From the IMG/VR virus record IMGVR_UViG_2681813232_000002: a DNA stretch of 35,822 bases; one strand, written 5' to 3'. Shown here one piece after another: positions 1 to 34,306 of this stretch. The notes below the pieces were generated by a model, which was not told the origin of the DNA, made no database searches, and saw only the letters and a program-made list of their open reading frames with translations. Source of the DNA: a virus (taxonomy: Duplodnaviria > Heunggongvirae > Uroviricota > Caudoviricetes). How positions within the stretch are numbered: position 1 is the stretch's first letter; each line of letters starts with the position of its first letter. Made by a program: the position numbers and the translations under genes.

Positions 1-1
1 A

Positions 2-882: not shown

Positions 883-913
883 TTTTTTTGCAAATCACAA
901 AGTCCATTTAATG

Positions 914-968
914 AGCCTCGCGATGCGGGGCTTTTTGCAATAAATGCGTACCGCAACGCATGTTTTTT
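914..968 (+). terminator. Two tandem hairpin plus T-run candidates downstream of Rz
   Basis: AGCCTCGC-GAT-GCGGGGCT followed by TTTTT (914-936); ATGCGT-ACCGCA-ACGCAT followed by GTTTTTT (944-968). Confidence 0.4.
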
Positions 969-1083
969 ACACCGAACCTGCCCCTTTGGAATGGGCCTTT
1001 GAGGATACCAGTTAGTGCTGGCGAGCCTCGGTGGGCTGGTTTCCTGTGCGGCAAAGGTTCATTTCAAAGAGTAGGTACACGCT

Positions 1084-1581: not shown

Positions 1582-1835
1582 GTGATCGTGTCATTGAATG
1601 CGCCTCCAGAGCGGGGCGTGACTTCTCAGAGTTCATGAAAGGTGAGAAGGGCATGATGGAAGCATTGTCCTCGGTGGATGAGTTTGGCGAGCAGCTGCGC
1701 CTCAACGGCTGTGTCAATCATCACTTTGTTAGCTACATGATGCGGAACTCGATCATGCAGGCATTCATGGACATGGCAAAAGCCGAGAGGAAAGAAGAGC
1801 GCCGGCGTAAGCGAGCAGAAGCAAAAGCGAAGTAG
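1578..1835 (+). CDS. Hypothetical protein, start overlaps the preceding stop (ATGA)
   Basis: 85-aa ORF with a Lys/Arg/Glu-rich C-terminus; no family recognised. Confidence 0.45.
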   Translation: MSDRVIECASRAGRDFSEFMKGEKGMMEALSSVDEFGEQLRLNGCVNHHFVSYMMRNSIMQAFMDMAKAERKEERRRKRAEAKAK

Positions 1836-1911
1836 CCATTACAAAGCCTATCTACGGGTGGGCTTGATAATGGCTTATACCCTACACGGGATAACTTAAC
1901 TGATATCCCTT

Positions 1912-2076
1912 TTAAAGGATAAAGGTATTCAAGCCTGACACATCATGCGCTGTATCGTCGCCGTATTCCCGTATTAACAGAGACCGTAGCCCGACGGGGA
2001 ACTCCTTCTGCGCGAGTGTGTGGGAATAATCAAAAACGATGCACACCGGGGTTACCGGGTACACATATTTCATCAT
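1912..2076 (-). CDS. Possible small ORF (54 aa), hypothetical
   Basis: Found by hand on the minus strand (MMKYVYPVTPVCIVFDYSHTLAQKEFPVGLRSLLIREYGDDTAHDVSGLNTFIL); below the 60-aa cutoff of the ORF track; no clear SD. Confidence 0.2.
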   Translation of the reverse strand: MMKYVYPVTPVCIVFDYSHTLAQKEFPVGLRSLLIREYGDDTAHDVSGLNTFIL

Positions 2077-2121
2077 GCCAGCGAGTCCGGTTCTGGCACG
2101 GAAGAAACCGGACGTTATGAT

Positions 2122-2532
2122 TTAGTGCGGAAATATTTGTGTAGTGTTCTGAATGTTCTCAGTAAAGAGTAATGAATTATCAAAGGTATAGTAATACCTT
2201 TTGTTTTCGTGGATATTTGTAATCCATCTGAAAACCCCTGCAGTAGCAAGATTTTTCCTGTATTCGTAAAATGATAACTCTCCTGATTTGAATCCTTTTA
2301 AGGTGGCTTCTATAAGGCATTTATTTTTTGAAAATCTTACATTTACAACCTTACCCTGTCCTTTTATTAAAACCGTATTATCGTTTTCAAGAACAAGATG
2401 AATATTCTCTGTAGCTAAATAGTAAATGTAATGTGAGACATTGTGACGTTTTAGTTCAGAATAAAACCAGTGATAGTTTAAATTATTTCGCACTTTATCG
2501 AATATTTGTTTAAAAATGGCAACCTGAGCCAT
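2122..2532 (-). CDS. DUF1398-family protein (YbcV/YdfO-like prophage accessory protein)
   Basis: AT-rich ORF. Start placed at the internal Met (MAQVAIFK...), which has SD GGAAGG 7 nt upstream and gives 136 aa. Sequence ([16 protein letters not shown]...[24 protein letters not shown]) matches my recollection of E. coli DLP12 YbcV. Confidence 0.6.
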
Positions 2533-2588
2533 TGTAGTACCTTCCATGTGATATGAGGGGCGTAGTCTGCACGATTATCTAAATTGCT

Positions 2589-2822
2589 TCAATCTGGTCT
2601 GATCTGTTTTCTGAGCAATTCAGTAATGTCACTCTTTTCTTTGTTTGCTTCAGGAGAAACTCTTTTTTCTGAGCACAGTCTCCGGCGGCAGGCTTCAATG
2701 ACCCAGGCTGAGAAATTCCCGGACCCTTTTTGATCAAGAGCGATGTTAATTTGTTCAATCATTTGGTTAGGAAAGCGGATGTTGCGGATTGTTGTTCTGC
2801 GGGTTCTGTTCTTCGTTGACAT
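2589..2822 (-). CDS. Small basic protein, YlcI/DUF3950-like, possibly ribbon-helix-helix
   Basis: 77-aa ORF (MSTKNRTRRTTIRNIRFPNQMIEQINIALDQKGSGNFSAWVIEACRRRL...). Same gene-order context as ylcI next to ybcV in DLP12. Confidence 0.45.
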   Translation of the reverse strand: MSTKNRTRRTTIRNIRFPNQMIEQINIALDQKGSGNFSAWVIEACRRRLCSEKRVSPEANKEKSDITELLRKQIRPD

Positions 2823-2989
2823 GAGGTTGTCCCGTATTCAGTGTCGCTGATTTGTATTGTCTGAAGTTGTTTTTACGTTAAGTTGATGCAGATCAATTAA
2901 TATGATACCTGCGTCATAATTGATTATTTGACGTGGTTTGATGGCGTAGATGCACGTTGTGACATGCAGATGATAATTATTATCATTTT

Positions 2990-3210
2990 GCGGGTCCTTT
3001 CCGGCGATCCGACAGGTTACGGGGCGGCGACCTCGCGGGTTTTCGCTATTTATGAAAATTTTCCGGTTTAAGGCATTTCCGTTCTTCTTCGTCGTAACTT
3101 AATGTTTTTATTTAAAATACCCCCTGAAAAGAAAGGAAACGACAGGTGCTGAAAACGAGCTTTTTGGCCTCTGTCGTTTCCTTTCTCTGTTTTTGTCCGT
3201 GGAATGAGCA
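2990..3210 (+). other. cos: Lambda-type cos site: 12-nt cohesive end GGGCGGCGACCT at 3022-3033, flanked by cosQ/cosB-like sequence up to the Nu1 start
   Basis: ...CCGACAGGTTACG|GGGCGGCGACCTCGCGGGTTTTCGCTATTTATGAAAATTTTCCGG... matches the joined right and left ends of lambda as I recall them. Confidence 0.85.
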
Positions 3211-3730
3211 ATGGAAGTCAACAAAAAGCAGCTGGCTGACATTTTCGGTGCGAGTATCCGTACCATTCAGAACTGGCAGGAACAGGGAATGCCCGTTCTG
3301 CGAGGCGGTGGCAAGGGTAATGAGGTGCTTTATGACTCTGCCGCCGTCATAAAATGGTATGCCGAAAGGGATGCTGAAATTGAGAACGAAAAGCTGCGCC
3401 GGGAGGTTGAAGAACTGCGGCAGGCCAGCGAGACAGATCTCCAGCCAGGGACTATTGAGTACGAACGCCATCGACTTACGCGTGCGCAGGCCGACGCACA
3501 GGAGCTGAAAAATGCCAGAGACTCCGCTGAAGTGGTGGAAACCGCATTCTGTACTTTCGTGCTGTCGCGGATCGCAGGTGAAATTGCCAGTATTCTCGAC
3601 GGGATCCCCCTGTCGGTGCAGCGGCGTTTTCCGGAACTGGAAAACCGACATGTTGATTTCCTGAAACGGGATATCATCAAAGCCATGAACAAAGCAGCCG
3701 CGCTGGATGAACTGATACCGGGGTTGCTGA

Positions 3731-3756
<26 letters not shown>
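3211..3756 (+). CDS. nu1: Terminase small subunit
   Basis: 181 aa, MEVNKKQLADIFGASIRTIQNWQEQGMPVL...; essentially identical to recalled lambda gpNu1; lies just downstream of cos. Confidence 0.97.
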
Positions 3757-7437
<3,681 letters not shown>

Positions 7438-7457
<20 letters not shown>

Positions 7458-8757
7458 TCTCCCGCATATTGCCAGCATGGCTTTTAATGAGCCGCTGATG
7501 CTTGAACCCGCCTACGCGCGGGTTTTCTTTTGTGCGCTTGCAGGCCAGCTTGGGATCAGCCGCCTGACGGATGCAGTATCCGGCGACAGCCTGACTGCCG
7601 GAGAGGCACCCGCGGCGCTGGCGTTATCCGGTGATGATGACGGACCACGACAGGCCCGCAGTTATCAGGTCATGAACGGCATCGCCGTGCTGCCGGTGTC
7701 CGGTACGCTGGTCAGCCGGACGCGGGCGCTGCAGCCGTATTCGGGAATGACCGGTTACAACGGCATTATCGCCCGTCTGCAACAGGCTGCCAGCGATCCG
7801 ATGGTGGACGGCATTCTGCTGGATATGGACACACCGGGCGGGATGGTGGCGGGAGCATTTGACTGTGCTGACATCATCGCCCGTGTGCGTGACATAAAGC
7901 CGGTATGGGCGCTGGCCAATGACATGAACTGCAGCGCAGGTCAGCTGCTTGCCAGTGCCTCCTCCCGGCGTCTGGTCACGCAGACCGCCCGGACAGGCTC
8001 CATCGGCGTCATGATGGCTCACAGTAATTACGGCGCTGCGCTGGAGAAACAGGGCGTGGAAATCACGCTGATTTACAGCGGCAGCCATAAGGTGGATGGC
8101 AACCCCTACAGCCATCTACCGGATGATGTCCGGGAAACACTGCAGTCCCGGATGGATGCAACCCGCCGGATGTTTGCACAGAAGGTGTCGGCATATACCG
8201 GCCTGTCCGTGCAGGCTGTGCTGGATACCGAGGCTGCAGTGTACAGCGGTCAGGAGGCCATTGATGCCGGACTGGCTGATGAACTTGTGAACAGTACCGA
8301 TGCGATCACCGTCATGCGTGATGCACTGGATGCACGTAAATCCCGTCTCTCAGGAGGGCGAATGACCAAAGAGACTCAATCAACAACTGTTTCAGCCACT
8401 GCTTCGCAGGCTGACGTTACTGGCGTGGTGCAAGCGACGGAGGGCGAGAACGCCAGCGCTGCGCAGCCGGACGTGAACGCGCAGATCACCGCAGCGGTTG
8501 CGGCAGAAAACAGTCGCATTATGGGGATCCTCAACTGTGAGGAGGCTCACGGACGCGAAGAACAGGCATGCGTGTTGGCCGAAACCCCCGGTATGACCGT
8601 GGAAACGGCCCGCCGTATTCTGGCCGCAGCACCACAGAGTGCACAGGCGCGCAGTGACACTGCGCTGGATCGTCTGATGCAGGGGGCACCGGCACCGCTG
8701 GCTGCAGGTAACCCGGCATCTGATGCCGTTAACGATTTGCTGAACACACCAGTGTAA
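7438..8757 (+). CDS. C: Head maturation protease / scaffold C
   Basis: GTG start (VTAELRNLPHIASMAF...) overlapping the end of B; 439 codons, the lambda gpC length. The ORF track extends upstream (7303) but has no ATG there. Confidence 0.9.
8152..8757 (+). CDS. nu3: Scaffolding protein Nu3, nested in-frame in the 3' part of C
   Basis: In-frame internal ATG (MDATRRMFAQ...) at the offset I recall for lambda Nu3. Exact start is uncertain; another in-frame ATG with SD GGAGGG lies at 8362. Confidence 0.55.
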   Translation: MDATRRMFAQKVSAYTGLSVQAVLDTEAAVYSGQEAIDAGLADELVNSTDAITVMRDALDARKSRLSGGRMTKETQSTTVSATASQADVTGVVQATEGENASAAQPDVNAQITAAVAAENSRIMGILNCEEAHGREEQACVLAETPGMTVETARRILAAAPQSAQARSDTALDRLMQGAPAPLAAGNPASDAVNDLLNTPV

Positions 8758-8766
8758 GGGATGTTT

Positions 8767-9099
8767 ATGACGAGCAAAGAAACCTTTACCCATTACCAGC
8801 CGCTGGGCAACAGTGACCCGGCTCATACCGCAACCGCGCCCGGCGGATTGAGTGCGAAAGCGCCTGCAATGACCCCGCTGATGCTGGACACCTCCACCCG
8901 TAAGCTGGTTGCGTGGGATGGCACCACCGACGGTGCTGCCGTTGGCATTCTGGCGGTTGCTGCTGACCAGACCAGCACCAAGCTGACGTTCTACAAGTCC
9001 GGCACGTTCCGTTATGAGGATGTGCTCTGGCCGGAGGATGCCAGCGACGAGACGAAAAAACGGACCGCGTTTGCCGGAACGGCAATCAGCATCGTTTAA
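8767..9099 (+). CDS. D: Capsid decoration protein D
   Basis: 110 aa, [27 protein letters not shown]...; matches recalled lambda gpD. Confidence 0.95.
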
Positions 9100-9118
9100 C
9101 CTGACCCTTCATCACTAA

Positions 9119-9140
9119 AGGCCGCCTGTGCGGCTTTTTT
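9119..9140 (+). terminator. Hairpin plus T-run between D and E (attenuator or terminator-like)
   Basis: GCCGC-CTGT-GCGGC followed by TTTTTT. Confidence 0.4.
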
Positions 9141-9153
9141 ACGGGATTTTTTT

Positions 9154-10179
9154 ATGTCGATGTACACAACCGCCCAGCTGCTGGCGGCAAATGAGCAGAA
9201 ATTTAAGTTTGATCCGCTGTTTCTGCGTCTCTTTTTCCGTGAGAGCTATCCCTTCACCACGGAGAAAGTCTATCTCTCACAAATTCCTGGACTGGTAAAC
9301 ATGGCGCTGTACGTTTCGCCAATTGTTTCCGGTGAGGTTATCCGTTCCCGTGGCGGCTCCACCTCTGAATTTACGCCGGGTTATGTCAAGCCGAAGCATG
9401 AGGTGAATCCGCAGATGACCCTGCGTCGCCTGCCGGATGAAGATCCACAGAATCTGGCGGACCCGGCTTACCGCCGCCGTCGCATCATCCTGCAGAACAT
9501 GCGTGACGAAGAGCTGGCCATTGCTCAGGTCGAAGAGATGCAGGCAGTTTCTGCCGTGCTCAAGGGCAAATACACCATGACCGGTGAAGCCTTCGATCCG
9601 GTTGAGGTGGATATGGGCCGCAGTGCGGCGAACAACATCACGCAGTCCGGCGGCACGGAGTGGAGCAAGCGTGACAAGTCCACGTATGACCCGACCGACG
9701 ATATCGAAGCCTACGCGCTGAACGCCAGCGGCGTGGTGAATATCATCGTGTTTGATCCGAAAGGCTGGGCGCTGTTCCGTTCCTTCAAAGCCGTCAAGGA
9801 GAAGCTGGATACCCGTCGCGGCTCTAATTCCGAGCTGGAGACAGCGGTAAAAGACCTGGGCGAAGCGGTGTCCTATAAGGGGATGTATGGCGATACGGCG
9901 ATCGTCGTGTATTCCGGACAGTACGTGGAAAACGACGTCAAAAAGAACTTCCTGCCGGACAACACGATGGTGCTGGGGAACACTCAGGCACGCGGTCTGC
10001 GCACCTATGGCTGCATTCAGGATGCGGACGCACAGCGCGAAGGTATTAACGCCTCTGCCCGCTACCCGAAAAACTGGGTGACCACCGGCGATCCGGCGCG
10101 TGAGTTCACCATGATTCAGTCAGCACCGCTGATGCTGCTGGCTGATCCTGATGCGTTCGTGTCCGTACAACTGGCGTAA
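9154..10179 (+). CDS. E: Major capsid protein E
   Basis: 341 aa, MSMYTTAQLLAANEQKFKFDPLFLRLFFRESYPF...; matches recalled lambda gpE. Confidence 0.97.
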   Translation: MSMYTTAQLLAANEQKFKFDPLFLRLFFRESYPFTTEKVYLSQIPGLVNMALYVSPIVSGEVIRSRGGSTSEFTPGYVKPKHEVNPQMTLRRLPDEDPQNLADPAYRRRRIILQNMRDEELAIAQVEEMQAVSAVLKGKYTMTGEAFDPVEVDMGRSAANNITQSGGTEWSKRDKSTYDPTDDIEAYALNASGVVNIIVFDPKGWALFRSFKAVKEKLDTRRGSNSELETAVKDLGEAVSYKGMYGDTAIVVYSGQYVENDVKKNFLPDNTMVLGNTQARGLRTYGCIQDADAQREGINASARYPKNWVTTGDPAREFTMIQSAPLMLLADPDAFVSVQLA

Positions 10180-10181
10180 TC

Positions 10182-10204
10182 GTGGCCCTTCGGGGCCATT
10201 TTCT
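10182..10204 (+). terminator. Hairpin with partial T-run just after E
   Basis: GGCCC-TTCG-GGGCC followed by ATTTTCTCT. Confidence 0.3.
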
Positions 10205-10220
10205 CTCTGTGGAGGAGTCC

Positions 10221-10616
10221 ATGACGAAAGATGAACTGATTGCCCGTCTTCAGGTGCTGGGTGAGCAACTGAACCGTGATGTCAGCCTGACGGGGACGAA
10301 AGAAGAACTGGTGCTCCGTGTGGCAGAGCTGGAAGAGGAGCTTGATGACACGGATGACGCTGCCGGTCAGGACACATCTGTCAGCCCGGAAAATGCGCTG
10401 ACCGGACATGAAAATGAGGTGGTATCAGCGCAGCCGGATACCGTGACTGATACGGCTGCTCTGGTCACGGTCGTGGCACTGGTGACGCTGCATACTGATG
10501 CACTTCACGCCACGCGGGATGAGCCTGTGGCATTTGTGCTGCCGGGAACGGCGTTTCGTGTCTCTGCCGGTGTGGCAGCCGAAATGACAGAACATGGCCT
10601 GGCCAGAATGCAATAA
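10221..10616 (+). CDS. FI: DNA-packaging protein FI
   Basis: SD GGAGGAG then ATG at 10221 (MTKDELIARL...); 131 aa; matches recalled lambda gpFI. Confidence 0.9.
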   Translation: MTKDELIARLQVLGEQLNRDVSLTGTKEELVLRVAELEEELDDTDDAAGQDTSVSPENALTGHENEVVSAQPDTVTDTAALVTVVALVTLHTDALHATRDEPVAFVLPGTAFRVSAGVAAEMTEHGLARMQ

Positions 10617-10627
10617 CGGGAGGCGCT

Positions 10628-10981
10628 GTGGCTGATTCCGATAACCTGTTCGATGCTGCCATTGCCCGCGCCGATGAAACGATACGCGGGTACATGGGAA
10701 CGTCAGCCACCATGACATCCGGTGAGCTGTCCGGTGCTGTGATACGTGGTGTTTTTGATGACCCTGAAAATATCAGCTATGCCGGACAGGGGGTGCGCGT
10801 TGAAGGCTCCAGCCCGTCCCTGTTTGTCCGGACTGATGATGTGCGGCAGCTGCGGCGTGGAGACACACTGACCATCGGCGAGGAAAACTTCTGGGTGGAC
10901 CGGATTTCGCCGGATGATGGCGGAAGCTGTCATCTCTGGCTTGGGCGTGGCGTGCCGCCTGCCGTTAACCGTCGCCGCTGA
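10628..10981 (+). CDS. FII: Head-tail joining (head completion) protein FII
   Basis: GTG start after SD GGGAGG; 117 aa, MADSDNLFDAAIARADETIRGYMG...; matches recalled lambda gpFII. Confidence 0.9.
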   Translation: MADSDNLFDAAIARADETIRGYMGTSATMTSGELSGAVIRGVFDDPENISYAGQGVRVEGSSPSLFVRTDDVRQLRRGDTLTIGEENFWVDRISPDDGGSCHLWLGRGVPPAVNRRR

Positions 10982-10992
10982 AAGGGGGATGT

Positions 10993-11571
10993 ATGGCCAT
11001 AAAAGGTCTTGAGCAGGCCGTTGAAAACCTCAGCCGTATCAGCAAAACGGCGGTGCCTGGTGCCGCCGCAATGGCCATTAACCGCGTTGCGTCATCCGCG
11101 ATATCGCAGTCTGCGTCACAGGTTGCCCGTGAGACAAAGGTACGCCGGAAACTGGTAAAGGAAAGGGCCAGGCTGAAAAGGGCCACGGTCAAAAATCCGC
11201 AGGCCAGAATCAGGGTTAACCGGGGGGATTTGCCCGTAATCAAGCTGGGTAACGCGCGGGTTGTCCTTTCGCGCCGCAGGCGTCGTAAAAAGGGGCAGCG
11301 TTCAGCCCTGAAAGGTGGCGGCAGTGTGCTTGTGGTGGGAAACCGTCGTATTCCCGGCACGTTTATTCAGCAACTGAAAAACGGCCGGTGGCATGTTATG
11401 CAGCGTGTGGCCGGGAAAAACCGTTACCCCATTGATGTAGTGAAAATCCCGATGGCGGTGCCGCTGACCACGGCGTTTAAACAGAATATTGAACGGATAC
11501 GGCGTGAACGTCTTCCGAAAGAGCTGGGCTATGCGCTGCAGCATCAACTGAGGATGGTAATAAAGCGATGA
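10993..11571 (+). CDS. Z: Tail completion protein Z
   Basis: 192 aa, MAIKGLEQAVENLSRISKTAVPG...; matches recalled lambda gpZ. Confidence 0.95.
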   Translation: MAIKGLEQAVENLSRISKTAVPGAAAMAINRVASSAISQSASQVARETKVRRKLVKERARLKRATVKNPQARIRVNRGDLPVIKLGNARVVLSRRRRRKKGQRSALKGGGSVLVVGNRRIPGTFIQQLKNGRWHVMQRVAGKNRYPIDVVKIPMAVPLTTAFKQNIERIRRERLPKELGYALQHQLRMVIKR

Positions 11572-11963
11572 AACATACTGAACTCCGTGCAGCCGTACTG
11601 GATGCACTGGAGAAGCATGACACCGGGGCGACGTTTTTTGATGGTCGCCCCGCTGTTTTTGATGAGGCGGATTTTCCGGCAGTTGCCGTTTATCTCACCG
11701 GCGCTGAATACACGGGCGAAGAGCTGGACAGCGATACCTGGCAGGCGGAGCTGCATATCGAAGTTTTCCTGCCTGCTCAGGTGCCGGATTCAGAGCTGGA
11801 TGCGTGGATGGAGTCCCGGATTTATCCGGTGATGAGCGATATCCCGGCACTGTCAGATTTGATCACCAGTATGGTGGCCAGCGGCTATGACTACCGGCGC
11901 GACGATGATGCGGGCCTGTGGAGTTCAGCCGATCTGACTTATGTCATTACCTATGAAATGTGA
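11568..11963 (+). CDS. U: Tail terminator protein U
   Basis: 131 aa, [26 protein letters not shown]...; matches recalled lambda gpU. Confidence 0.95.
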
Positions 11964-11970
11964 GGACGCT

Positions 11971-12711
11971 ATGCCTGTACCAAATCCTACAATGCCGGTG
12001 AAAGGTGCCGGGACCACCCTGTGGGTTTATAAGGGGAGCGGTGACCCTTATGCGAATCCGCTTTCAGACGTTGACTGGTCGCGTCTGGCAAAAGTTAAAG
12101 ACCTGACGCCCGGCGAACTGACCGCTGAGTCCTATGACGACAGCTATCTCGATGATGAAGATGCAGACTGGACTGCGACCGGGCAGGGGCAGAAATCTGC
12201 CGGAGATACCAGCTTCACGCTGGCGTGGATGCCCGGAGAGCAGGGGCAGCAGGCGCTGCTGGCGTGGTTTAATGAAGGCGATACCCGTGCCTATAAAATC
12301 CGCTTCCCGAACGGCACGGTCGATGTGTTCCGTGGCTGGGTCAGCAGTATCGGTAAGGCGGTGACGGCGAAGGAAGTGATCACCCGCACGGTGAAAGTCA
12401 CCAATGTGGGACGTCCGTCGATGGCAGAAGATCGCAGCACGGTAACAGCGGCAACCGGTATGACCGTGACGCCAGCCAGCGCTTCCGTAGTGAAAGGGAA
12501 GAGCACCACGCTGACCGTGGCATTCCAGCCGGAAGGCGCAACCGACAAGAGCTTCCGTGCGGTGTCAGCGGATAAAACAAAAGCCACCGTGTCGGTCAGT
12601 GGTATGACCATCACCGTGAATGGCGTTGCTGCAGGTAAGGTCAACATTCCGGTCGTATCCGGTAATGGTGAGTTTGCTGCGGTTGCAGAAATCACCGTCA
12701 CCGCCAGTTAA
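11971..12711 (+). CDS. V: Major tail tube protein V
   Basis: ATG at 11971 ([22 protein letters not shown]...); 246 aa; C-terminal Ig-like region present. Confidence 0.95.
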
Positions 12712-12726
12712 TCCGGAGAGTCAGAG

Positions 12727-13149
12727 ATGTTCCTGAAAACCGAATCATTTGAACATAACGGCGTGACCGTCACGCTTTCTGAACTGTCAGCCCTGCAGCG
12801 TATTGAGCATCTCGCCCTGATGAAACGGCAGGCAGAACAGGCGGAGTCAGACAGCAACCGGCAGGTTACTGTGGAAGACGTCATCAGAACCGGTGCTTGT
12901 GTGGTGGCGATGTCCCTGTGGCATAACCATCCGAAGAAGACGCAGATGCCGTCCATGAATGAAGCCGTTAAACAGATTGAACAGGAAGTGCTTACCACCT
13001 GGCCCACAGAGGCAATTTCTCATGCTGAAAACGTGGTGTACCGGCTGTCCGGAATGTATGAGTTTGTTGTGAATAATACCCCTGAACAGACAGAGGACGC
13101 CGGGCCTGCAGAGCCTGTTTCTGCGGGAAAGTGTTCGACGGTGAGCTGA
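12727..13149 (+). CDS. G: Tail assembly chaperone G
   Basis: 140 aa, MFLKTESFEHNGVTVTLSELSALQRIEHLALMKRQ...; matches recalled lambda gpG. Confidence 0.95.
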   Translation: MFLKTESFEHNGVTVTLSELSALQRIEHLALMKRQAEQAESDSNRQVTVEDVIRTGACVVAMSLWHNHPKKTQMPSMNEAVKQIEQEVLTTWPTEAISHAENVVYRLSGMYEFVVNNTPEQTEDAGPAEPVSAGKCSTVS

Positions 13150-13565
13150 GTTTTGCCCTGAAACTGGCGCGTGAGATGGGGCGACCCGACTGGCGTGCCA
13201 TGCTTGCCGGGATGTCATCCACGGAGTATGCCGACTGGCACCGCTTTTACAGTACCCATTATTTTCATGATGTTCTGCTGGATATGCACTTTTCCGGGCT
13301 GACGTACACCGTGCTCAGCCTGTTTTTCAGCGATCCGGATATGCATCCGCTGGATTTCAGTTTGCTGAACCGGCGTGAGGCTGACGAAGAGCCTGAAGAT
13401 GATGTGCTGATGCAGAAAGCGGCAGGGCTTGCCGGAGGTGTCCGCTTTGGCCCGGACGGGAATGAAGTTATCCCCGCTTCCCCGGATGTGGCGGACATGA
13501 CGGAGGATGACGTAATGCTGATGACAGTATCAGAAGGGATCGCAGGAGGAGTCCGGTATGGCTGA
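12727..13565 (+). CDS. T: Tail assembly chaperone G-T fusion, made by -1 frameshift at 13125-13131
   Basis: The T-frame ORF (13131-13565, ...LSFALKLAREMGRPDWRAMLAGMSSTEYADWHRFY...) has no independent start and overlaps G, as in lambda. Confidence 0.8.
13125..13131 (+). promoter_or_regulatory. Programmed -1 ribosomal frameshift slippery site GGGAAAG (G to G-T)
   Basis: G GGA AAG heptamer near the 3' end of G; the T frame is open from here to 13565. Confidence 0.8.
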
Positions 13566-18539: not shown

Positions 18540-21500
18540 ATGGGTAAAGGCAGCAGTAAGGGGCATACCCCGCGCGAAGCGAAGGACAACCTGAAGTCCA
18601 CGCAGCTGCTGAGTGTGATCGATGCCATCAGCGAAGGGCCGGTTGAAGGTCCGGTGGATGGATTAAAAAGCGTGCTGCTGAACAGTACGCCGGTGCTGGA
18701 CAGTGAGGGGAATACCAATATATCCGGCGTCACGGTGGTGTTCCGGGCAGGTGAGCAGGAGCAGTCACCGCCGGAGGGATTTGAATCCTCCGGCTCCGAG
18801 ACGGTGCTGGGTACGGAAGTGAAATATGACACGCCGATCACCCGCACCATTACGTCGGCAAACATTGACCGTCTGCGCTTTACCTTCGGTGTACAGGCAC
18901 TGGTGGAAACCACCTCAAAGGGTGACAGGAATCCGTCGGAAGTCCGTCTGCTGGTTCAGATACAGCGTAATGGTGGCTGGGTGACGGAAAAAGACATCAC
19001 CATTAAGGGCAAAACCACCTCGCAGTATCTGGCCTCGGTGGTGGTGGGTAACCTGCCGCCGCGCCCGTTCAATATACGGATGCGCAGGATGACGCCGGAC
19101 AGCACCACAGACCAGCTGCAGAACAAAACGCTCTGGTCGTCATACACCGAAATCATCGATGTGAAACAGTGCTACCCGAACACGGCACTGGTCGGCGTGC
19201 AGGTGGACTCGGAGCAGTTCGGCAGCCAGCAGGTGAGCCGTAATTATCATCTTCGCGGACGCATTCTGCAGGTGCCGTCGAACTATAACCCGCAGACGCG
19301 GCAATACAGCGGTATCTGGGACGGAACGTTTAAGCCAGCATACAGCAACAACATGGCCTGGTGTCTGTGGGATATGCTGACCCACCCGCGTTACGGCATG
19401 GGTAAACGTCTTGGTGCGGCAGATGTGGATAAATGGGCGCTGTATGTCATCGGCCAGTGTTGCGACCAGTCGGTGCCGGACGGTTTTGGCGGCACGGAGC
19501 CGCGCATCACCTGTAATGCCTGGCTGACCACACAGCGTAAGGTGTGGGATGTTCTCAGTGATTTCTGCTCGGCGATGCGCTGTATGCCGGTATGGAACGG
19601 GCAGACGCTGACGTTCGTGCAGGACCGGCCATCAGATAAGGTGTGGACCTATAACCGCAGTAATGTGGTGATGCCGGATGATGGCGCGCCGTTCCGCTAC
19701 AGCTTCAGCGCCCTGAAGGACCGCCATAATGCCGTTGAGGTGAACTGGATTGACCCGGACAACGGCTGGGAGACGGCGACAGAGCTTGTGGAGGATACGC
19801 AGGCCATTGCCCGTTACGGTCGTAACGTCACGAAGATGGATGCCTTTGGCTGTACCAGCCGGGGGCAGGCACACCGCGCCGGGCTGTGGCTGATTAAAAC
19901 GGAGCTGCTGGAAACGCAGACCGTGGACTTCAGCGTGGGTGCCGAAGGGCTTCGCCATGTACCGGGCGATGTCATTGAAATCTGCGATGATGACTATGCG
20001 GGCATCAGCACCGGTGGGCGCGTGCTGGCGGTGAACAGCCAGACGCGGACACTGACGCTCGACCGTGAAATCACGCTGCCAGCCTCCGGCACCACGCTGA
20101 TAAGCCTGGTTGACGGAAGTGGCAATCCGGTCAGCGTGGAGGTTCAGTCCGTCACCGACGGCGTGAAGGTGAAAGTGAGCCGTGTTCCTGACGGCGTTGC
20201 CGGATACAGCGTGTGGGGGCTGAAGCTGCCGACGCTGCGCCAGCGCCTGTTCCGCTGTGTGAGTATCCGTGAGAACGACGACGGCACGTATGCCATCACC
20301 GCCGTGCAGCATGTGCCGGAAAAAGAGGCCATCGTGGATAACGGAGCGCACTTTGACGGCGACCAGAGCGGCACGGTGAATGGTGTCACGCCGCCAGCAG
20401 TGCAGCATCTGACCGCAGAAGTCACCGCAGACAGCGGGGAATACCAGGTGCTGGCCCGCTGGGACACGCCGAAGGTGGTGAAGGGGGTGAGCTTTATGCT
20501 TCGCCTGACCGTGGCAGCGGATGACGGCAGTGAGCGACTGGTCAGCACGGCCCGGACGACGGAAACCACATACCGCTTCACGCAACTGACGCTGGGAAAC
20601 TACAGGCTGACAGTCCGGGCGGCAAATGCCTGGGGGCAGCAGGGCGATCCGGCATCGGTATCGTTCCGGATTGCCGCACCGGCAGCACCGTCGCGGATTG
20701 AGCTGACGCCGGGCTATTTTCAGATAACCGCAACGCCGCATCTTGCCGTTTATGATTCGACGGTACAGTTTGAGTTCTGGTTCTCGGAAAAGCGGATTGC
20801 GGATATCAGGCAGGTTGAAACCACAGCCCGCTATCTTGGCATGGCGCTGTACTGGATAGCCGCCAGTATCAATATCAAACCGGGCCATGATTATTATTTT
20901 TACGTTCGCAGTGTGAACACCGTTGGCAAATCGGCATTCGTGGAGGCTGTCGGTCAGCCGAGTGATGATGCATCCGGCTATCTGGATTTTTTCAAAGGCG
21001 AGATAGGGAAAACCCATCTGGCTCAGGAGCTGTGGACGCAGATTGATAACGGTCAGCTTGCGCCTGACCTGGCTGAAATCAGGACGTCCATTACGGATGT
21101 CAGCAATGAAATCACGCAGACCGTCAATAAGAAACTGGAAGACCAGAGTGCGGCAATTCAGCAGATACAGAAGGTTCAGGTTGATACAAATAATAACCTG
21201 AACAGCATGTGGGCTGTGAAGCTGCAGCAGATGCAGGACGGACGCCTTTATATCGCGGGTATTGGTGCCGGTATTGAGAACACCCCTGACGGCATGCAGA
21301 GTCAGGTGCTGCTGGCGGCGGACAGGATTGCGATGGTTAATCCTGCGAATGGCAACACAAAACCGATGTTTGTTGGTCAGGGCGATCAGATATTCATGAA
21401 CGACGTGTTCCTGAAACGCCTGACGGCCCCCACCATTACCAGCGGTGGAAATCCACCGGCATTTTCCCTGACACCGGACGGAAAGCTGACCGCTAAAAAT

Positions 21501-22037
21501 GCGGATATCAGTGGCAGTGTGAATGCGAACGCCGGGACGCTCAACAATGTCACGGTAAATGAAAACTGTACGATTAAGGGCATGCTGGAGGCGACTCAGG
21601 TCAGAGGTGACTTCGTTAAAGCTGTATCCAAATCATTTCCGAAACAGGCTGGTACGTGGGGTAACACGGAAACACCAAACGGGACGGTTACAGTCACCAT
21701 CAGCGATGATCATAACTTTGACCGTCAAATCATTATTCCGCCCATTATCTTTAACGGAATAGCGTATAGCGATCCGGGAAGTGGTAATAACCCGGGAGGT
21801 ACAAGATACACGGGTTATGGTTTTGAAGTTCGCAAAAACGGTGTATTAATCGCATCCAGAGAAACTAAAGGGGCCATTCCCGGTAGCTACAGTGCGGTTA
21901 TTGATATGCCGAGTGGCAGGGGAAGCGTCACTCTGGAGTTTAAGGTTTTCCATAAAGGCAATCAGTGGGCAGGTAATATCACCGACTGTACGGTGATTGT
22001 GACCAAAAAAGCTGCTTCCGGCATCAGTATTCGTTGA
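18540..22037 (+). CDS. J: Tail tip / central fibre protein J (host specificity)
   Basis: 1165 aa, [34 protein letters not shown]...; lambda gpJ-like over most of its length, with the C-terminal receptor-binding part diverged (see findings). Confidence 0.95.
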
Positions 22038-22057
22038 AGTTGTTATAACCCATATAA

Positions 22058-22084
22058 GGGCACCAGAAATGGTGCCTTTTTTAT
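22058..22084 (+). terminator. Rho-independent terminator after J
   Basis: GGGCACC-AGAAAT-GGTGCC followed by TTTTTTATT. Confidence 0.6.
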
Positions 22085-22106
22085 TGCAGAAAAGCGAGAG
22101 GTAATT

Positions 22107-22706
22107 ATGCGTAAACTTTATGCCGCCATTTTGTCCGCAGCCATTTGTCTGGCCGTATCCGGTGCGCCTGCATGGGCATCTGAACATCAGTCCACGCTGA
22201 GCGCGGGGTATCTTCATGCCCGGACCAACGTTCCCGGCAGCGATGATCTGAACGGGATTAACGTGAAATACCGTTATGAGTTTACGGACACACTGGGGCT
22301 GGTGACGTCATTCAGCTATGCAGGAGACAAGAATCGCCAGCTTACCCGTTACAGCGATACCCGCTGGCATGAAGATTCCGTTCGTAACCGCTGGTTCAGC
22401 GTAATGGCGGGGCCGTCTGTGCGCGTGAATGAATGGTTCAGCGCGTATGCGATGGCGGGTGTGGCTTACAGCCGTGTGTCGACTTTCTCCGGGGATTATC
22501 TCCGCGTAACTGACAACAAGGGGAAAACGCACGAAGTGCTGACCGGAAGTGATGACGGTCGCCACAGCAACACGTCTCTGGCGTGGGGGGCTGGCGTGCA
22601 GTTTAACCCGACCGAATCCGTGGCCATTGATATTGCTTATGAAGGCTCCGGCAGTGGCGACTGGCGCACTGACGGTTTCATCGTGGGTGTCGGTTATAAA
22701 TTCTGA
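22107..22706 (+). CDS. lom: Lom, outer-membrane beta-barrel protein of the Ail/Lom family
   Basis: 199 aa with signal peptide ([24 protein letters not shown]) and C-terminal ...VGVGYKF; lies after J as in lambda. Confidence 0.9.
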
Positions 22707-22764: not shown

Positions 22765-25700
22765 GTGAATATGGCAGTAAAGATTTCAGGTGTACTGAAA
22801 GACGGCGCAGGTAAACCGGTACAGAACTGCACAATCCAGCTGAAAGCAAAACGTAACAGCACCACGGTGGTGGCGAACACGGTGGCCTCAGAAAATCCGG
22901 ATGAAGCCGGGCGTTACAGCATGGACGTTGAGTACGGTCAGTACAGCGTTATTCTGTTGGTGGAAGGATTCCCGCCGTCACATGCCGGGACCATCACCGT
23001 GTATGAAGATTCTCAACCCGGTACGCTGAATGATTTTCTCGGTGCCATGACGGAGGATGATGCCCGTCCGGAGGCACTGCGCCGTTTTGAACTGATGGTG
23101 GAAGAGGTGGCGCGTAACGCGTCCGCAGTGGCGCAGAACACGGCAGCCGCGAAGAAGTCAGCCAGCGATGCCAGCACATCAGCCCGTGAGGCGGCAACCC
23201 GTGCGACTGATGCTGCAGGCTCAGCACGTGCAGCCAGCACGTCAGCCGGACAGGCCGCGTCGTCGGCTCAGTCAGCGTCTTCCAGCGCAGGAACAGCATC
23301 AACAAAGGCCACTGAAGCATCAAAAAGTGCTGCCGCCGCAGAGTCTTCAAAAAGCGCGGCAGCCACCAGTGCAGGTGCAGCGAAAACGTCGGAAATGAAT
23401 GCCGCAGCATCACAAAAATCTGCGGCCACATCTGCATCCACCGCGACCACGAAAGCGTCAGAAGCTGCCACCTCAGCCCGGGATGCGTCGGCTTCAAAAG
23501 TGGCGGCAAAATCATCAGAAACGAGCGCTGCCTCGAGCGCCGGCAGTGCAGCTTCCTCGGCAACGGCGGCAGGAAATTCCGCGAAGGCCGCAAAAACGTC
23601 TGAGACGAATGCGGATAACAGCGCACAGGCGGCAGCAGACTCACAAACTGCATCGGCAAACTCCGCGACAGCAGCCAAAAAATCAGAAACCAACGCGAAA
23701 AATAGTGAGGCAGCAGCAAAGGTCAGCGAAACCAACGCTAAAGCGTCAGAGAACAAGGCGAAAGAATATCTCGACAAGGTCGGGGGACTCGTCAGCCCGA
23801 TGACGCAATACGATTGGCCCGTTGTTACTGGTAATGAGTCTTTTTACATCAAGATCGCGAAACTTTCCGATCCCGGAAGCAACAATTGCCATGTAACGCT
23901 AATGGTTACTAATGCCGGTAACTACGGCTCCCCTTACGGAAACATTGACTTTATCGAGATCTCGGCGCGCGGTCTGCCTTCTTCGCTTACTGCGGATAAT
24001 GTATCCCGTTACCTGAGTATACGCCGCTTAGGGGCAACCGGGCTGACCGATGACAACCAGATGCGTTACGGCCTGGTTAAAGGTGATGGCTTTATTGAGG
24101 TTTGGGCCTTCCAGCGTGCATTTATCAACGGCGCAAAGGTTGCGGTACTGGCGCAGACGGCACGCACGGAATTATACATTCCAGACGGATTTGTTAAGCA
24201 AACCGCCGCGCCTTCTGGATATGTTGAAGGCAACGTTGTAAGGATTTACGACCAGGTAAACAAGCCGACTAAAGCAGATTTGGGTCTTTCTAATGCTATG
24301 CTTACAGGCGCTTTCGGTCTTGGCGGTAGCGGTCTTGTTTTGGATGGTAAAATGACCGATAAGGAACTACTACAAGAGCTAAGGGCGAAAGGTGGGTGTT
24401 TCTGGAGGTCAGGAAAACCAACAGGTAGCGAATCAACAATTTTCAGTCACGGTTCTGGTATATTCTCGCGGTGCGGCGATACGTGGTCAGCTATTAATAT
24501 CGATTACGAAAGCGGTAGAGTAAAGATTTACTCTAGTAACGATAATAGACTCAACAATGGTACTTTTAACATAAATGAGCTATACGGAACCAAATACAAG
24601 CCGTCGAAATCGGATGTTGGACTTAGCAATGTAACGAACGATGCGCAGGTAAAAAAAACCGGCGATATTATGTCAGGTGATCTGTCGATCACTAAAGCAA
24701 CACCTTCACTATACCTGCGTTCAAAAAGTGGAACCGCCCATGTATGGTTCCAAAATGAGGATCAGTCGGAACGCGGCGTTATTTTTGCGCCTACAAATAC
24801 TGATACGCTTGGCGAAGTTCACATCAGGGCTAAAAACGCAAAAGGTCAATCAAGTGGTGATTTTATTGTTCGTCACGACGGGATGGTAGAAGCCCTTAAT
24901 CTAAAAGTAACGAGAAAAATCAATGGAGCCACCGCAGAATTTGCAAACACAAGCACTAACTCCGATGATACCACGGTAAATATCAAAGGATCACAGCATA
25001 CGCCTTTGGTTTTAACGCGCAACAACACAATTAAAAACTTATCCATTGGGTTTAAGGTTGATGATGTTGATCAAAAATACCTGGGTATAGCTGGCGACGG
25101 TGATTTATATTTTGGTAGTTATTCTGACCACACAAAAAACAGCAAAGTGATCACACAAGCAAAACTAGATAGCGGGTTAACGGTAGGAGGTAAAACAACC
25201 TTTTCTGACCTTGCTACATTCAACGCAGGTATATCTGGAGCAATTGAACCTGAAAACATTTCTTCAGAGACTGTCGATCTTAATAATCTGACCATAAAAG
25301 ACACAGATAAAGGATCAGTTAAATACTATCAATGCAGAACTGCCGGAGGTGGTGCAAATATTACCAATAAGCCTGACGGCGTAGGCGGCAACTTTTTGCT
25401 TCGTGTAGAGTCAATTCGTAAGGTTAGTGATTCAGATTATATAAACATGCAAACGCTGATTAGCGGCGACAAAGGACGCGTGTATGTTCGTTTTGTTACT
25501 AATGGTAATTTTACAGCATGGAGCGAGCATGTTGTTTCAGGATGGAATCAGGATGTGACCGTCAGGTCGTTAACCTCGACGACTCCATCAAAATTAGGTG
25601 GCGGGCGGATTGATGTGCTTGGAAGTACGTCAGATTATGGCGAGATGAATTGTACTGTGCGTGGTGTTGATAGCACTGGAACTAATTCGGCGTGGTCTGT

Positions 25701-26529
25701 AGGTACATCAGAAAGCACAGGAAAAATGTTGTACCTGAAAAACCACAGAAGCAGCGCTCAAGTGCTGTTAAATGGCGATGATGGCGCGGTGCAACTACTA
25801 AGCGGTACTGTCAACGGTGCTACAGCACAGGCGCTAACCATCAACAAAGATGAGGTTAACTCAACTGTTAATTTAACCCTTACAAAACAATCAGGGACTG
25901 GCAATCGTTTTGTTTTACAGAACGCAGGTAATGCAGAACTACCGTTTTTTGTCAGTGTGTGGGGTTCCAGTACTCGACAAAACGTTCTTGAGGTTGGAAC
26001 GTCTGCTGCGTATCTGTTTTATGCGCAAAGAACGCCAGCAGGCCAGTTGTTTGATGTAAATGGCGCTATTAATTGCACAACGCTGAATCAGTCATCAGAC
26101 CGCGACCTTAAAGACGATATTCTCGTTATCAGCGACGCGACGAAAGCAATCCGTAAAATGAACGGATACACCTACACGCTCAGGGAAAACGGGATGCCTT
26201 ATGCTGGCGTTATTGCACAGGAAGTAATGGAGGCGATACCAGAAGCTGTGGGATCGTTTACTCATTACGGTGAAGAGTTGCAGGGACCAACGGTTGACGG
26301 CAACGAGCTACGCGAAGAAACGCGCTATCTTAATGTTGACTACGCCGCCGTGACGGGTTTACTTGTTCAGGTCGCCCGTGAAACAGATGATCGCGTTACC
26401 GCGCTGGAAGAGGAAAACACAACGCTACGTCAAAATCTGGCAACAGCAGGCACCCGGATCAGCACTCTGGAAAATCAGGTAAGCGAACTGGTTGCACTTG
26501 TCCGGCAGTTAACAGGAAGCGAACATTGA
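22765..26529 (+). CDS. stf: Side tail fibre protein (Stf-like), chimeric: lambda-Stf-like N-terminus, divergent distal region, C-terminal intramolecular-chaperone (peptidase S74-like) domain
   Basis: 1254 aa. N-terminus MAVKISGVLKDGAGKPVQNCTIQLKAKRNSTTV... matches recalled lambda Stf. Ala/Ser-rich repeat region follows. C-terminus has an S-D-R-D-L-K-D-D-I motif followed by a coiled-coil (LEEENTTLRQNL...LENQVSELVALVRQL). Confidence 0.9.
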   Translation: MNMAVKISGVLKDGAGKPVQNCTIQLKAKRNSTTVVANTVASENPDEAGRYSMDVEYGQYSVILLVEGFPPSHAGTITVYEDSQPGTLNDFLGAMTEDDARPEALRRFELMVEEVARNASAVAQNTAAAKKSASDASTSAREAATRATDAAGSARAASTSAGQAASSAQSASSSAGTASTKATEASKSAAAAESSKSAAATSAGAAKTSEMNAAASQKSAATSASTATTKASEAATSARDASASKVAAKSSETSAASSAGSAASSATAAGNSAKAAKTSETNADNSAQAAADSQTASANSATAAKKSETNAKNSEAAAKVSETNAKASENKAKEYLDKVGGLVSPMTQYDWPVVTGNESFYIKIAKLSDPGSNNCHVTLMVTNAGNYGSPYGNIDFIEISARGLPSSLTADNVSRYLSIRRLGATGLTDDNQMRYGLVKGDGFIEVWAFQRAFINGAKVAVLAQTARTELYIPDGFVKQTAAPSGYVEGNVVRIYDQVNKPTKADLGLSNAMLTGAFGLGGSGLVLDGKMTDKELLQELRAKGGCFWRSGKPTGSESTIFSHGSGIFSRCGDTWSAINIDYESGRVKIYSSNDNRLNNGTFNINELYGTKYKPSKSDVGLSNVTNDAQVKKTGDIMSGDLSITKATPSLYLRSKSGTAHVWFQNEDQSERGVIFAPTNTDTLGEVHIRAKNAKGQSSGDFIVRHDGMVEALNLKVTRKINGATAEFANTSTNSDDTTVNIKGSQHTPLVLTRNNTIKNLSIGFKVDDVDQKYLGIAGDGDLYFGSYSDHTKNSKVITQAKLDSGLTVGGKTTFSDLATFNAGISGAIEPENISSETVDLNNLTIKDTDKGSVKYYQCRTAGGGANITNKPDGVGGNFLLRVESIRKVSDSDYINMQTLISGDKGRVYVRFVTNGNFTAWSEHVVSGWNQDVTVRSLTSTTPSKLGGGRIDVLGSTSDYGEMNCTVRGVDSTGTNSAWSVGTSESTGKMLYLKNHRSSAQVLLNGDDGAVQLLSGTVNGATAQALTINKDEVNSTVNLTLTKQSGTGNRFVLQNAGNAELPFFVSVWGSSTRQNVLEVGTSAAYLFYAQRTPAGQLFDVNGAINCTTLNQSSDRDLKDDILVISDATKAIRKMNGYTYTLRENGMPYAGVIAQEVMEAIPEAVGSFTHYGEELQGPTVDGNELREETRYLNVDYAAVTGLLVQVARETDDRVTALEEENTTLRQNLATAGTRISTLENQVSELVALVRQLTGSEH
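23095..23760 (+). repeat. Low-complexity Ala/Ser/Thr-rich repeat region inside stf (GCx/TCx/ACx codon repeats)
   Basis: Protein segment ...SASDASTSAREAATRATDAAGSARAASTSAGQAASSAQSASSSAG... repeated over about 220 aa; it generates the many spurious overlapping ORFs on both strands here. Confidence 0.7.
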
Positions 26530-32130: not shown

Positions 32131-32294
32131 TCACCTAGTTTTCCCAAGTCAACCCACATCAACAAAATCATTTAAAAACATATATATTACGTTGTTTTCA
32201 TACGTTTGAGGTCAACCCTTGTCTCTTGAAATCAACACGCGGTTGGGGGCACAATCAGGGGCATGTTCTGTTCGATCTAGGAAATGTGCCCCCA

Positions 32295-33485
32295 ATGATG
32301 CTGAATGCCCGCAAGGTTGAAGCTGCGAAAGGAAAAGAGAAGAGCTACAAGCTGTTTGATGGAGGTGGCCTATACCTTCAGGTCGAACCTAATGGCTCGC
32401 GTTACTGGCGTATGAAATACCGTTTTGCTGGTAAAGAGAAACGATTGTCCTTTGGTGTTTATCCAACAGTCACACTTGCTGATGCCAGACAAAAACGAGA
32501 AGACGCGAAGAAACTACTCGCAGCAGGTGAAGATCCCGGCGAAGTCAAAAAAGCCAAAAAGCAGGCTTTAAATGCAGCGAGTGAGACACTTAACCCATTC
32601 AGAGAAGTGGCGTTAGAGTGGCACAAAATGAAATCACCCAAATGGTCTGAGGGCTATGCTTCCGACATCATTGAGGCATTCGAGAAAGACATTTTCCCGC
32701 ATATTGGGCACAGACCTATAGCTGATATTCAGCCCCTTGAACTGCTTGAAGTTCTGAGGTTGATAGAAGCTCGAGGCGCTATGGAGAAAGCGAAGAAAGT
32801 CCGTCAGCGATGCGGTGAAGTTTTTCGCTATGCCATCGTAACGGGTAGGGCAATCTACAATCCGGCACCGGATCTTGCCAGTGCGATGCAAGGACATGAA
32901 GCAGTCCACTATCCATTCCTCAAAGCCAACGAACTACCGGAGTTCTTTAATGCCCTTAATTCTTATTCAGGAAGTCCAATTGTATTGTTGGGGGCGCATT
33001 TACTTATCCTGACAGGTCTACGAACTGGAGAACTACGAGCAGGTGAGTGGCGAGAGGTGGATTTTGATAATGCGGTGTGGGAGATCCCAAAAGAACGTAT
33101 GAAAATGCGTAGGAGCCATATTGTCCCGTTGTCAAAACAAGCATTATCCCATCTCAAAAGTTTGAAAGAACTAACTGGGAACTACCCGCTGATGTTCCCT
33201 GGACGCAACGATCCCAGCAAATTTATGAGTGAAGCAAGCATTAATCAGGTGTTTAAACGTATTGGATATGCAGGGCGTGTTACGGGGCATGGTTTCAGGC
33301 ATACGATGAGTACAATCCTACATGAGAAAGGATTTAACAGCGCTTGGATTGAAACCCAGCTTGCTCATTCGGACAAAAACTCTATTCGTGGAATTTATAA
33401 CCATGCCCAATATCTCGAAGGGAGAAGAGAAATGATGCAATGGTATGCTAATTATTTATCTGAGCAAATTGGTACTCATAAATGA
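32295..33485 (+). CDS. int: Tyrosine recombinase/integrase, P4-like (genomic-island type)
   Basis: MMLNARKVEAAKGKEKSYKLFDGGGLYLQVEPNGSRYWRMKYRFAGKEKRLSFGVYPTVTLADAR... is the typical P4-type N-terminal arm-binding domain. C-terminal catalytic region has R...HGFRHT...Y-like motifs. The ORF track starts at 32226 but there is no ATG before 32295. Confidence 0.9.
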   Translation: MMLNARKVEAAKGKEKSYKLFDGGGLYLQVEPNGSRYWRMKYRFAGKEKRLSFGVYPTVTLADARQKREDAKKLLAAGEDPGEVKKAKKQALNAASETLNPFREVALEWHKMKSPKWSEGYASDIIEAFEKDIFPHIGHRPIADIQPLELLEVLRLIEARGAMEKAKKVRQRCGEVFRYAIVTGRAIYNPAPDLASAMQGHEAVHYPFLKANELPEFFNALNSYSGSPIVLLGAHLLILTGLRTGELRAGEWREVDFDNAVWEIPKERMKMRRSHIVPLSKQALSHLKSLKELTGNYPLMFPGRNDPSKFMSEASINQVFKRIGYAGRVTGHGFRHTMSTILHEKGFNSAWIETQLAHSDKNSIRGIYNHAQYLEGRREMMQWYANYLSEQIGTHK

Positions 33486-34306
33486 ATATTTTAAAAATTA
33501 ATAATACTGATTCTCTGCTCAGAGATTACTACCAGTTGGATGAAGCTTCAGAAAAAATTGGTTGTAGTGAAAAGGATATACTCTGGTTTGCCAGAGAACG
33601 AGATGTAGAGCTATGCATGGAATTCCATGATGATGAGTATGATGTTTCATGTGGTTTGAAGATTGATGGTCAAATAGATGAGTTCTTATCTAATCTGAAA
33701 TATTTACCACGAGATAGAAATGGCAATATTATGTTGTCAGACTTAAGTTCTATAAGAATCCCTGATGAAGATAATTTAATTGATAAAAATGGTTTTATTC
33801 GATGCTTCATATCCGGTTTATGGGCTGTTGATTATGAATATAAAGATCTGTTAGTTAAGCATGAGGGGCAACCGGATTCCTGGCCTATTCATTTTCTACT
33901 GGCGGGTACGCCTAATATAAATTGTAAGGTAATTCTTTATGTAAATTATGATGAAAAAGAAAATTATTATCTTTTTGAGGTTTTGTGGATTACAAAGGTA
34001 CAGATTCAAAAATTCATTGATATAGTCTTATGCGAACAAAAGCGGATAAAAAACGCCAATAAATATAAATCACAATCTGAGGCGCAAAAACAAAAACATG
34101 CTGTTCCTCGAGCTGAAATACTCATGGCTATTATTTCGCTCTATCATCGTGATATGAGGCTAAGAAGAGAGAGTCCAGCAGCGATAGCTGATTATCTTTT
34201 TCAACATGCCAGTGAGTTCTGGCCTAAGACCGGAGAACCGCCTTTGAGCTATGATACTGTTGTTAGTTTGCTACGTAGTTGCATGAAAAACATTAAGTTT
34301 AACTAA
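33482..34306 (+). CDS. Hypothetical protein, AT-rich, translationally coupled to the integrase (ATGA overlap)
   Basis: 274-aa ORF with markedly AT-rich codon usage; no family recognised. Confidence 0.7.
   Translation: MNILKINNTDSLLRDYYQLDEASEKIGCSEKDILWFARERDVELCMEFHDDEYDVSCGLKIDGQIDEFLSNLKYLPRDRNGNIMLSDLSSIRIPDEDNLIDKNGFIRCFISGLWAVDYEYKDLLVKHEGQPDSWPIHFLLAGTPNINCKVILYVNYDEKENYYLFEVLWITKVQIQKFIDIVLCEQKRIKNANKYKSQSEAQKQKHAVPRAEILMAIISLYHRDMRLRRESPAAIADYLFQHASEFWPKTGEPPLSYDTVVSLLRSCMKNIKFN

Follow-up and report, generated by a model that had tools for sequence, protein, structure and literature searches.

In the lambda J protein a shaft of three helices (AHS, residues 809-861) lies beneath the FNIII domains. 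Next come a beta-prism fibre (CSF) and, at the C-terminus, an Ig-like domain that binds the receptor and has four loops at its bottom (PMC11101478). When lambda binds LamB, the tips move apart and the prism becomes twisted, the shaft turns over through about 180 degrees and refolds in part to beta-strands, the FNIII strings separate and the tube opens (PMC11101478). Phage 434 uses OmpC, and its J gene confers OmpC use when swapped into lambda (PMC3509688, PMC11101478). C-terminal parts of gpJ from natural prophages, when grafted onto lambda gpJ at aa 964, likewise redirect the phage to OmpC (PMC11338833). Published work has described the J specificity region as modular (PMC6646904) and has reported indel hot spots near lambda residues 1012, 1048-49, 1077-78 and 1107, which Maddamsetti et al. 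proposed to be specificity loops (PMC6646904). Here we describe the J gene carried by a 35,822-nucleotide stretch of tailed-phage DNA (IMG/VR record IMGVR_UViG_2681813232_000002), referred to throughout as the window.

The J gene and its domain make-up

The complete gene for the tail-tip attachment protein, or central tail fibre, was found in the ORF listing on the plus strand at 18540..22037 and encodes 1165 residues followed by a stop codon. In a profile search the protein scored 2323.9 bits against the NCBIfam model lambda_TipJ (NF049904; cut-off 1950), with residues 1-1165 aligned to model positions 1-1163 of 1163, so that the protein is full length. Six Pfam domains, all above their cut-offs, followed one another in the order FNIII-A_GpJ, Phage-tail_3, Ig_J, Ig_J_second, Phage_Tail_Tip and Ig_GpJ_C, and a phmmer comparison with the J chain of the lambda structure (8iyk_J) gave E=0 over residues 1-1164. 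Upstream of J lie uninterrupted ORFs of 859, 109, 232, 247 and 223 residues, whose sizes and succession match H, M, L, K and I of lambda, labels that were assigned by size and order and not by family search. A lom-like gene and then a 1254-residue fibre gene lie downstream, and J stands last in the tail operon, as expected for a J of the lambda type. Judged from its sequence, J is an intact lambda-family tail-tip protein.

Comparison of J with lambda, 434 and 21

The protein was compared region by region with J of lambda (NC_001416 15505-18903; NP_040600; 1132 residues), 434 (OL657226, UMO75286; 1137 residues) and 21 (OL657228, UMO75436; 1160 residues). Over the N-terminal part (aa 1-805, 18540..20954, plus strand), which comprises the hub and two FNIII/Ig domains, protein alignment gave 781/805 identical residues with lambda, 784/805 with 434 and 783/805 with 21. 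Nucleotide identity in this part was about 95%, with dS values of 0.15-0.19 (0.17 against lambda).

This uniformity ends at residue 806. The segment from there to residue 945 (20955..21374, plus strand), here called block A, maps to the lambda AHS (809-861) and the top of the CSF, and had only 57 of 112 aligned residues in common with lambda (about 51%) and 58 of 112 with 434, with 28 gap positions in each case. In contrast, 136 of its 140 residues were identical to those of phage 21 without a gap, and its DNA was 100% identical to that of phi458. Relative to both lambda and 434 there is a net gain of 28 residues, an insertion that MAFFT placed at aa 836-856 and 860-866. The distance between the conserved SAFVE and AGIG anchors was 112 residues in the window J, as in 21, and 84 in lambda and 434; anchor spacing and identity to 21 J both place this segment in the long AHS class of phage 21, and we describe block A as a 21-type alpha-helical shaft with the upper beta-prism.

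The lower beta-prism of the central straight fibre (aa 946-1002, 21375..21545, plus strand) separates the two divergent blocks and is conserved in all of the phages compared, with 53/57 identities to lambda (93%), 51/57 to 434 and 50/57 to 21, and with DNA 86-98% identical to that of lambda. From its sequence, this stretch is likely to have served as a recombination joint.

Block B, the receptor-binding domain (aa 1003-1165 and the stop codon, 21546..22037, plus strand; Pfam Ig_GpJ_C at aa 1029-1164), is an Ig-like beta-sandwich of the 434 type. It matched 434 J at 154 of 163 residues with no gaps (94%, the value also obtained in a five-way alignment). Against lambda there were 64 identities in 152 aligned residues and 17 gap positions (about 41% identity, and about 54% at the nucleotide level), and against 21 there were 71 in 152 with 17 gap positions (44%) and a different indel pattern. 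Relative to lambda, the tip indels fall after lambda residues 1011, 1051, 1078 and 1099, with a deletion of residues 1109-1114, and the resulting changes in loop length (+2, +6, +1, +2 and -6) are the same in the window J and in 434. These indels coincide with the hot spots of Maddamsetti et al. (PMC6646904). The tip thus had both the full-length identity and the indel pattern of the 434 class, and no close identity to the lambda class as represented by lambda J aa 975-1132. At the DNA level, divergence from lambda was confined to about 20960-21360 and 21540-22037, the latter running on into lom, with about 180 nucleotides of 86-98% identity between them. Mismatch was 3% over aa 1-805 and about 50-58% in the two blocks, a contrast far larger than chance would produce.

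A preliminary description of this DNA, made without database searches, had placed these features with good accuracy. The lengths that it gave, 1165 residues against 1132 for lambda, were right, and so was its view that J is lambda-like through most of its length. The divergent internal segment that it located around 21000-21300 and the last roughly 150 residues that it took to differ from lambda both proved slightly longer when measured, and the pairwise alignment with lambda J that it proposed as a check left the C-terminal region far from identical.

Receptor use and triggering

With a tip 94% identical to that of 434 and free of indels relative to it, the simplest reading is that the window J binds OmpC, and on the basis of this homology we consider that the tip probably does so. 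The preliminary description had suggested that this phage may use an outer-membrane receptor other than that of lambda, and the suggestion is supported by a tip at 41% identity to lambda and a gapless 94% to a phage that uses OmpC, the receptor itself being assigned by homology. A solved gpJ-OmpC complex is available for comparison (9wcb).

To place the tip differences in a structural context, we used the strands and loops of an AF2 model together with the indel sites. The model, a monomer of aa 790-1165 built from a shallow alignment of 20 sequences, had a mean pLDDT of 49, and only the tip, a beta-sandwich with pLDDT 70-88, was usable; the shaft helices at aa 811-822, 826-836 and 841-884 had pLDDT below 50 and were not relied on. 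The best structural matches to the modelled tip were the gpJ fibres 9wca, 8xck, 8xcj and 9wcb, from lambda and A8. Nine substitutions, including R1143W, distinguish the 163-residue tip from that of 434, and in the model Q1036, A1037, S1077 and W1143 lie in or beside putative receptor-contact loops. Trp1143 (nt 21966-21968), in the putative L4 loop, is replaced by Arg in 434 and phi458 and by His in lambda; it is not unique to the window, since the whole of 21540-22037 is matched at 100% identity in E. coli CFS3273.

The placement of these four residues is one reason to ask whether a tip of the 434 class might have had its receptor shifted by the nine substitutions, to OmpF, to LamB, to OmpC-like porins of other enterobacteria, or to OmpC alleles other than the one that 434 uses on K-12. 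One or a few mutations switch or widen receptor use in the J proteins of lambda and 21 (PMC11336670, PMC6646904), phage 21, a native LamB user, gaining OmpC by a single mutation (PMC11336670). Receptor use can also vary within a tip class, since the tip of A8, an OmpC binder, is 81% identical to that of the LamB phage 21. Furthermore, recognition of OmpC by gpJ tips varies with the OmpC allele (PMC11338833), the 1A2 tip delivering to the OmpC of EDL933 and not to that of MG1655 (PMC11338833). Set against this are the 94% identity and the complete lack of indels between the window and 434 tips, and the K-12-type hosts of the phages whose tip regions are 98-99.6% identical to the window at the nucleotide level: the isolation host of Ayreon was a derivative of E. 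coli K-12 (PMC5764929) and the phi458 record gives E. coli MC1061 as host, which fits use of K-12 OmpC as in 434. We therefore regard such a shift as unlikely. A range of OmpC alleles differing from that of 434 is a real possibility within it, but a shift of that kind would still amount to OmpC use. Our literature search for receptor data on phages carrying this J allele (Ayreon, phi458, the PhiR phages and mEp332) found none. The engineered OmpC tips A8 and 1A2 were also considered as members of the 434 class, and alignment and sequence reading ruled this out; they are not of that class and so serve the window tip as analogy only.

The tip would say little about current receptor use if J were a non-functional relic of a defective prophage, and many E. 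coli J genes are indeed fragments. The 1165-codon frame is, however, uninterrupted and full length on the curated TipJ model, it is flanked on both sides by uninterrupted ORFs sized as lambda-like tail and head genes, and viable phages carry near-identical J genes: Ayreon, phi458 and cdtI are plaque-forming phages whose full-length J is 96-98% identical. Decay of the gene is accordingly very improbable.

For a functional J with a 434-class tip, the sequence of events at the cell surface can be proposed by analogy with lambda. Most likely, the trimeric C-terminal Ig-like domain would dock on the trimeric porin OmpC and not on LamB. Binding to OmpC would spread the tips and twist the beta-prism, the helical shaft would then flip and refold with release of the FNIII strings, and the tail tube would open for DNA ejection; these later steps are extrapolated from what lambda does on LamB.

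Origin of the mosaic gene

J is a mosaic whose two divergent blocks have their closest counterparts in phages 21 and 434, and the combination recurs in many E. coli genomes. Relative to lambda, the Nei-Gojobori estimate of dS was 0.17 in the N-terminal part but rose to 1.71 in block A and 1.86 in block B, whereas dS to the donor types was 0.11 for block A against 21 and 0.34 for block B against 434. Since synonymous sites are saturated only inside the two blocks, these are old, separately evolving alleles that were joined by recombination in the conserved flanks.

The likely explanation overall, in our judgement, is that homologous recombination assembled J from three allele blocks that already existed. 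One is the N-terminal hub and FNIII part, which lambda, 21 and 434 have in common; another is the longer 21-type alpha-helical shaft with the upper fibre; and the last is the 434-type receptor-binding domain, which would have arrived together with a 434-type lom. All combinations of the blocks occur in nature: the 434 tip sits on a short shaft in 434 itself and on an extra-long one in P0105, and long shafts carry the 21 tip in phage 21 and a third type of tip in P0001. The partial-coverage classes among E. coli genomes reflect the same reassortment of blocks.

Rapid diversifying selection acting in place on a lambda-like J, with no imported blocks, was rejected on dS as scarcely credible, for although the specificity region is fast-evolving and an indel hot spot (PMC6646904), dS reaches 1.7-1.9 in the blocks and is about 0.17 in the flanking parts, the protein sequences of the two blocks match those of phages 21 and 434 at 97% and 94% identity, and the block boundaries are sharp in the DNA.

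Shaft length classes

Measured between the SAFVE and AGIG anchors, the shaft falls into at least three discrete length classes of 84 residues (lambda and 434), 112 residues (the window and 21) and 185 residues (some E. coli prophages). The extra-long form was seen in the E. coli prophage J fragments P0105 and P0115, in the region corresponding to window aa 798-909, where it accompanies the same 434-type tip. The 434-type tip thus occurs with a short, medium or extra-long shaft, and the medium shaft also occurs with other tips, so that shaft classes and tip domains are freely reassorted. Length polymorphism of J was noted, and left unexplained, in 2018 (PMC6646904); the text of that paper carries no residue numbers, and we infer that its length variants correspond to the shaft classes seen here.

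A scan of the shaft for hydrophobic residues at heptad positions a and d gave no clean continuous register. We do not claim the 28-residue insertion as four coiled-coil heptads, and the step to the third class adds 73 residues more, which is not a multiple of 7. The lambda shaft segment flips and refolds to open the tail, so shaft length might be a tunable determinant. It is speculative, and on balance rather unlikely, that length tunes a property such as the threshold for triggering, the stability of the virion or how far the tip reaches through O-antigen or capsule, and is not simply a neutral spacer. If it did, J would contain a second host-range module that is independent of the receptor.

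Neighbouring genes

Between J and lom lies a terminator-like hairpin with a T-run (GGCACCA-GAAA-TGGTGCC, 22059..22083, plus strand, read from the sequence), and phage 434 has an annotated terminator at the corresponding position. The lom-like gene itself (22107..22706, plus strand; 199 residues; Pfam Ail_Lom, E=1.5e-120), which encodes an outer-membrane protein, is of the 434 type, with nucleotide identity of 98-100% to 434 and about 45-68% to lambda. The 434-like DNA (21540-22706) therefore spans the J tip, the hairpin and all of lom, and tip and lom seem to move together as a single cassette. In phage 21 a lom gene is lacking here.

Further downstream on the plus strand, a side tail fibre of 1254 residues (22765-26529) combines an N-terminal domain of the prophage tail-fibre type with an extended Ala/Ser-rich repeat region and, at the C-terminus, Peptidase_S74, an intramolecular chaperone domain, a make-up unlike that of the lambda stf/tfa pair. 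Just beyond it, in a low-GC island whose 31-39% GC compares with about 55-60% for the tail genes, comes a gene for Avs2, the AVAST type 2 anti-phage protein (27247-31701, plus strand; 1484 residues; PADLOC Avs2, E=0; NCBIfam NF041813, 1689.6 bits, cut-off 1000). This gene is followed on the same strand by a 419-residue protein with a tyrosine-recombinase/integrase domain (32226-33485; NF007246 domain, E=5e-88, below the model cut-off) and by a 274-residue ORF with no family match (33482-34306).

A prophage of E. coli MB07152 (L004, NZ_CM129878) resembles the window at this end, with a J gene 99.9% identical, an Avs2 gene of the same size that again lies just beyond the side tail fibre, and lom and side-fibre genes placed as in the window. 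In place of the 419- and 274-residue ORFs it carries a satellite-like element (integrase, Icd-like and primase genes). Its head genes are annotated as HK97-like, with a ClpP-protease/major-capsid fusion, whereas window positions 1-13500 include ORFs with the sizes of lambda-like head genes (641, 533 and 341 residues). With heads that differ and tail tips that are alike, the tail-tip end is common to different head modules. A second low-GC stretch (2001-3000, 36-41%) lies in the window between its first ORFs (110-1581) and the first lambda-sized head ORF, and contains a minus-strand ORF of 141 residues (2122..2547).

Prevalence in E. coli

The prevalence of each block was determined in 5426 complete E. 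coli genomes. Block A, the 21-type shaft, was present in 3559 of them and the lambda-type shaft in 2627, the 434-type tip occurred in 2092, and block A joined to a 434-type tip in one gene was found in 1164; genes with just one of these two blocks were also frequent. The lambda-type tip occurred in only 96 genomes, at 99% identity or more in every case, and the four full-length matches listed include the K-12 lines C3026, NCM3722 and MG1655. A search of protein databases returned at least 8000 near-identical J fragments from E. coli and Shigella, and the diversity among those listed extended little beyond three shaft and three tip classes.

The J allele is known and very common, so the observation contains nothing new: the mosaic is an ordinary, previously sequenced allele, and neither mechanism nor classification is changed by it. 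The preliminary description had treated the variant as noteworthy, yet in natural prophages of E. coli the rare tip is that of lambda, and the counts are a reminder of how uncommon the LamB-binding tip of lambda is in that setting. The practical value lies in annotation, where J of this prophage should read as having an OmpC-type (434-class) tip and not a LamB-type tip, which affects predictions of host range and superinfection.

Comparison with known systems

Lambda J, which is LamB-specific (structures 8IYK, 8XCK and 8XCJ), belongs to the same family as the window J and has the same domain order and the same hub and FNIII length, but its shaft is 28 residues shorter (about 51% identical) and its tip is only 41% identical. 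J of phage 21 has in common with the window the N-terminal part (97%) and block A (136/140), but it is natively LamB-specific and its receptor-binding domain is of another class (44% identity). J of 434 has 97% of the N-terminal 805 residues and 154 of 163 tip residues, without gaps, in common with the window, and the lom downstream is 98-100% identical at the nucleotide level, but its helical shaft is of the short lambda type, 28 residues shorter than block A.

The A8 and 1A2 chimeras of lambda gpJ (Brodel et al. 2024) are natural prophage tips joined at lambda aa 964, within the same conserved stretch that separates the blocks in the window J. The A8 gpJ713-OmpC structures (PDB 9WCA/9WCB) and the window tip have an Ig-like fold in common, but the A8 tip belongs to the 21 class, being 48% identical to the window tip and 81% identical to that of 21. 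The 1A2 tip, as read from the printed end of its DNA sequence, belongs to a third class that resembles P0001.

The closest systems are those with the same three-block mosaic of 1165 residues, namely the phages Ayreon (MF807953), phi458 (OP434518), cdtI (AB285204), ev099, mEp332 and PhiR34_1 and the MB07152 prophage. Over the full-length gene, nucleotide identity to the window J was 99.9% for MB07152, 98.2% for Ayreon, 97.0% for phi458 and 96.1% for cdtI, and the differences are no more than point changes scattered along the gene. For phi458 the identity rises to 99.6% over 21000-22037, and of the 21 amino acid differences from the window J, 20 lie in aa 1-789 and the last is W1143.
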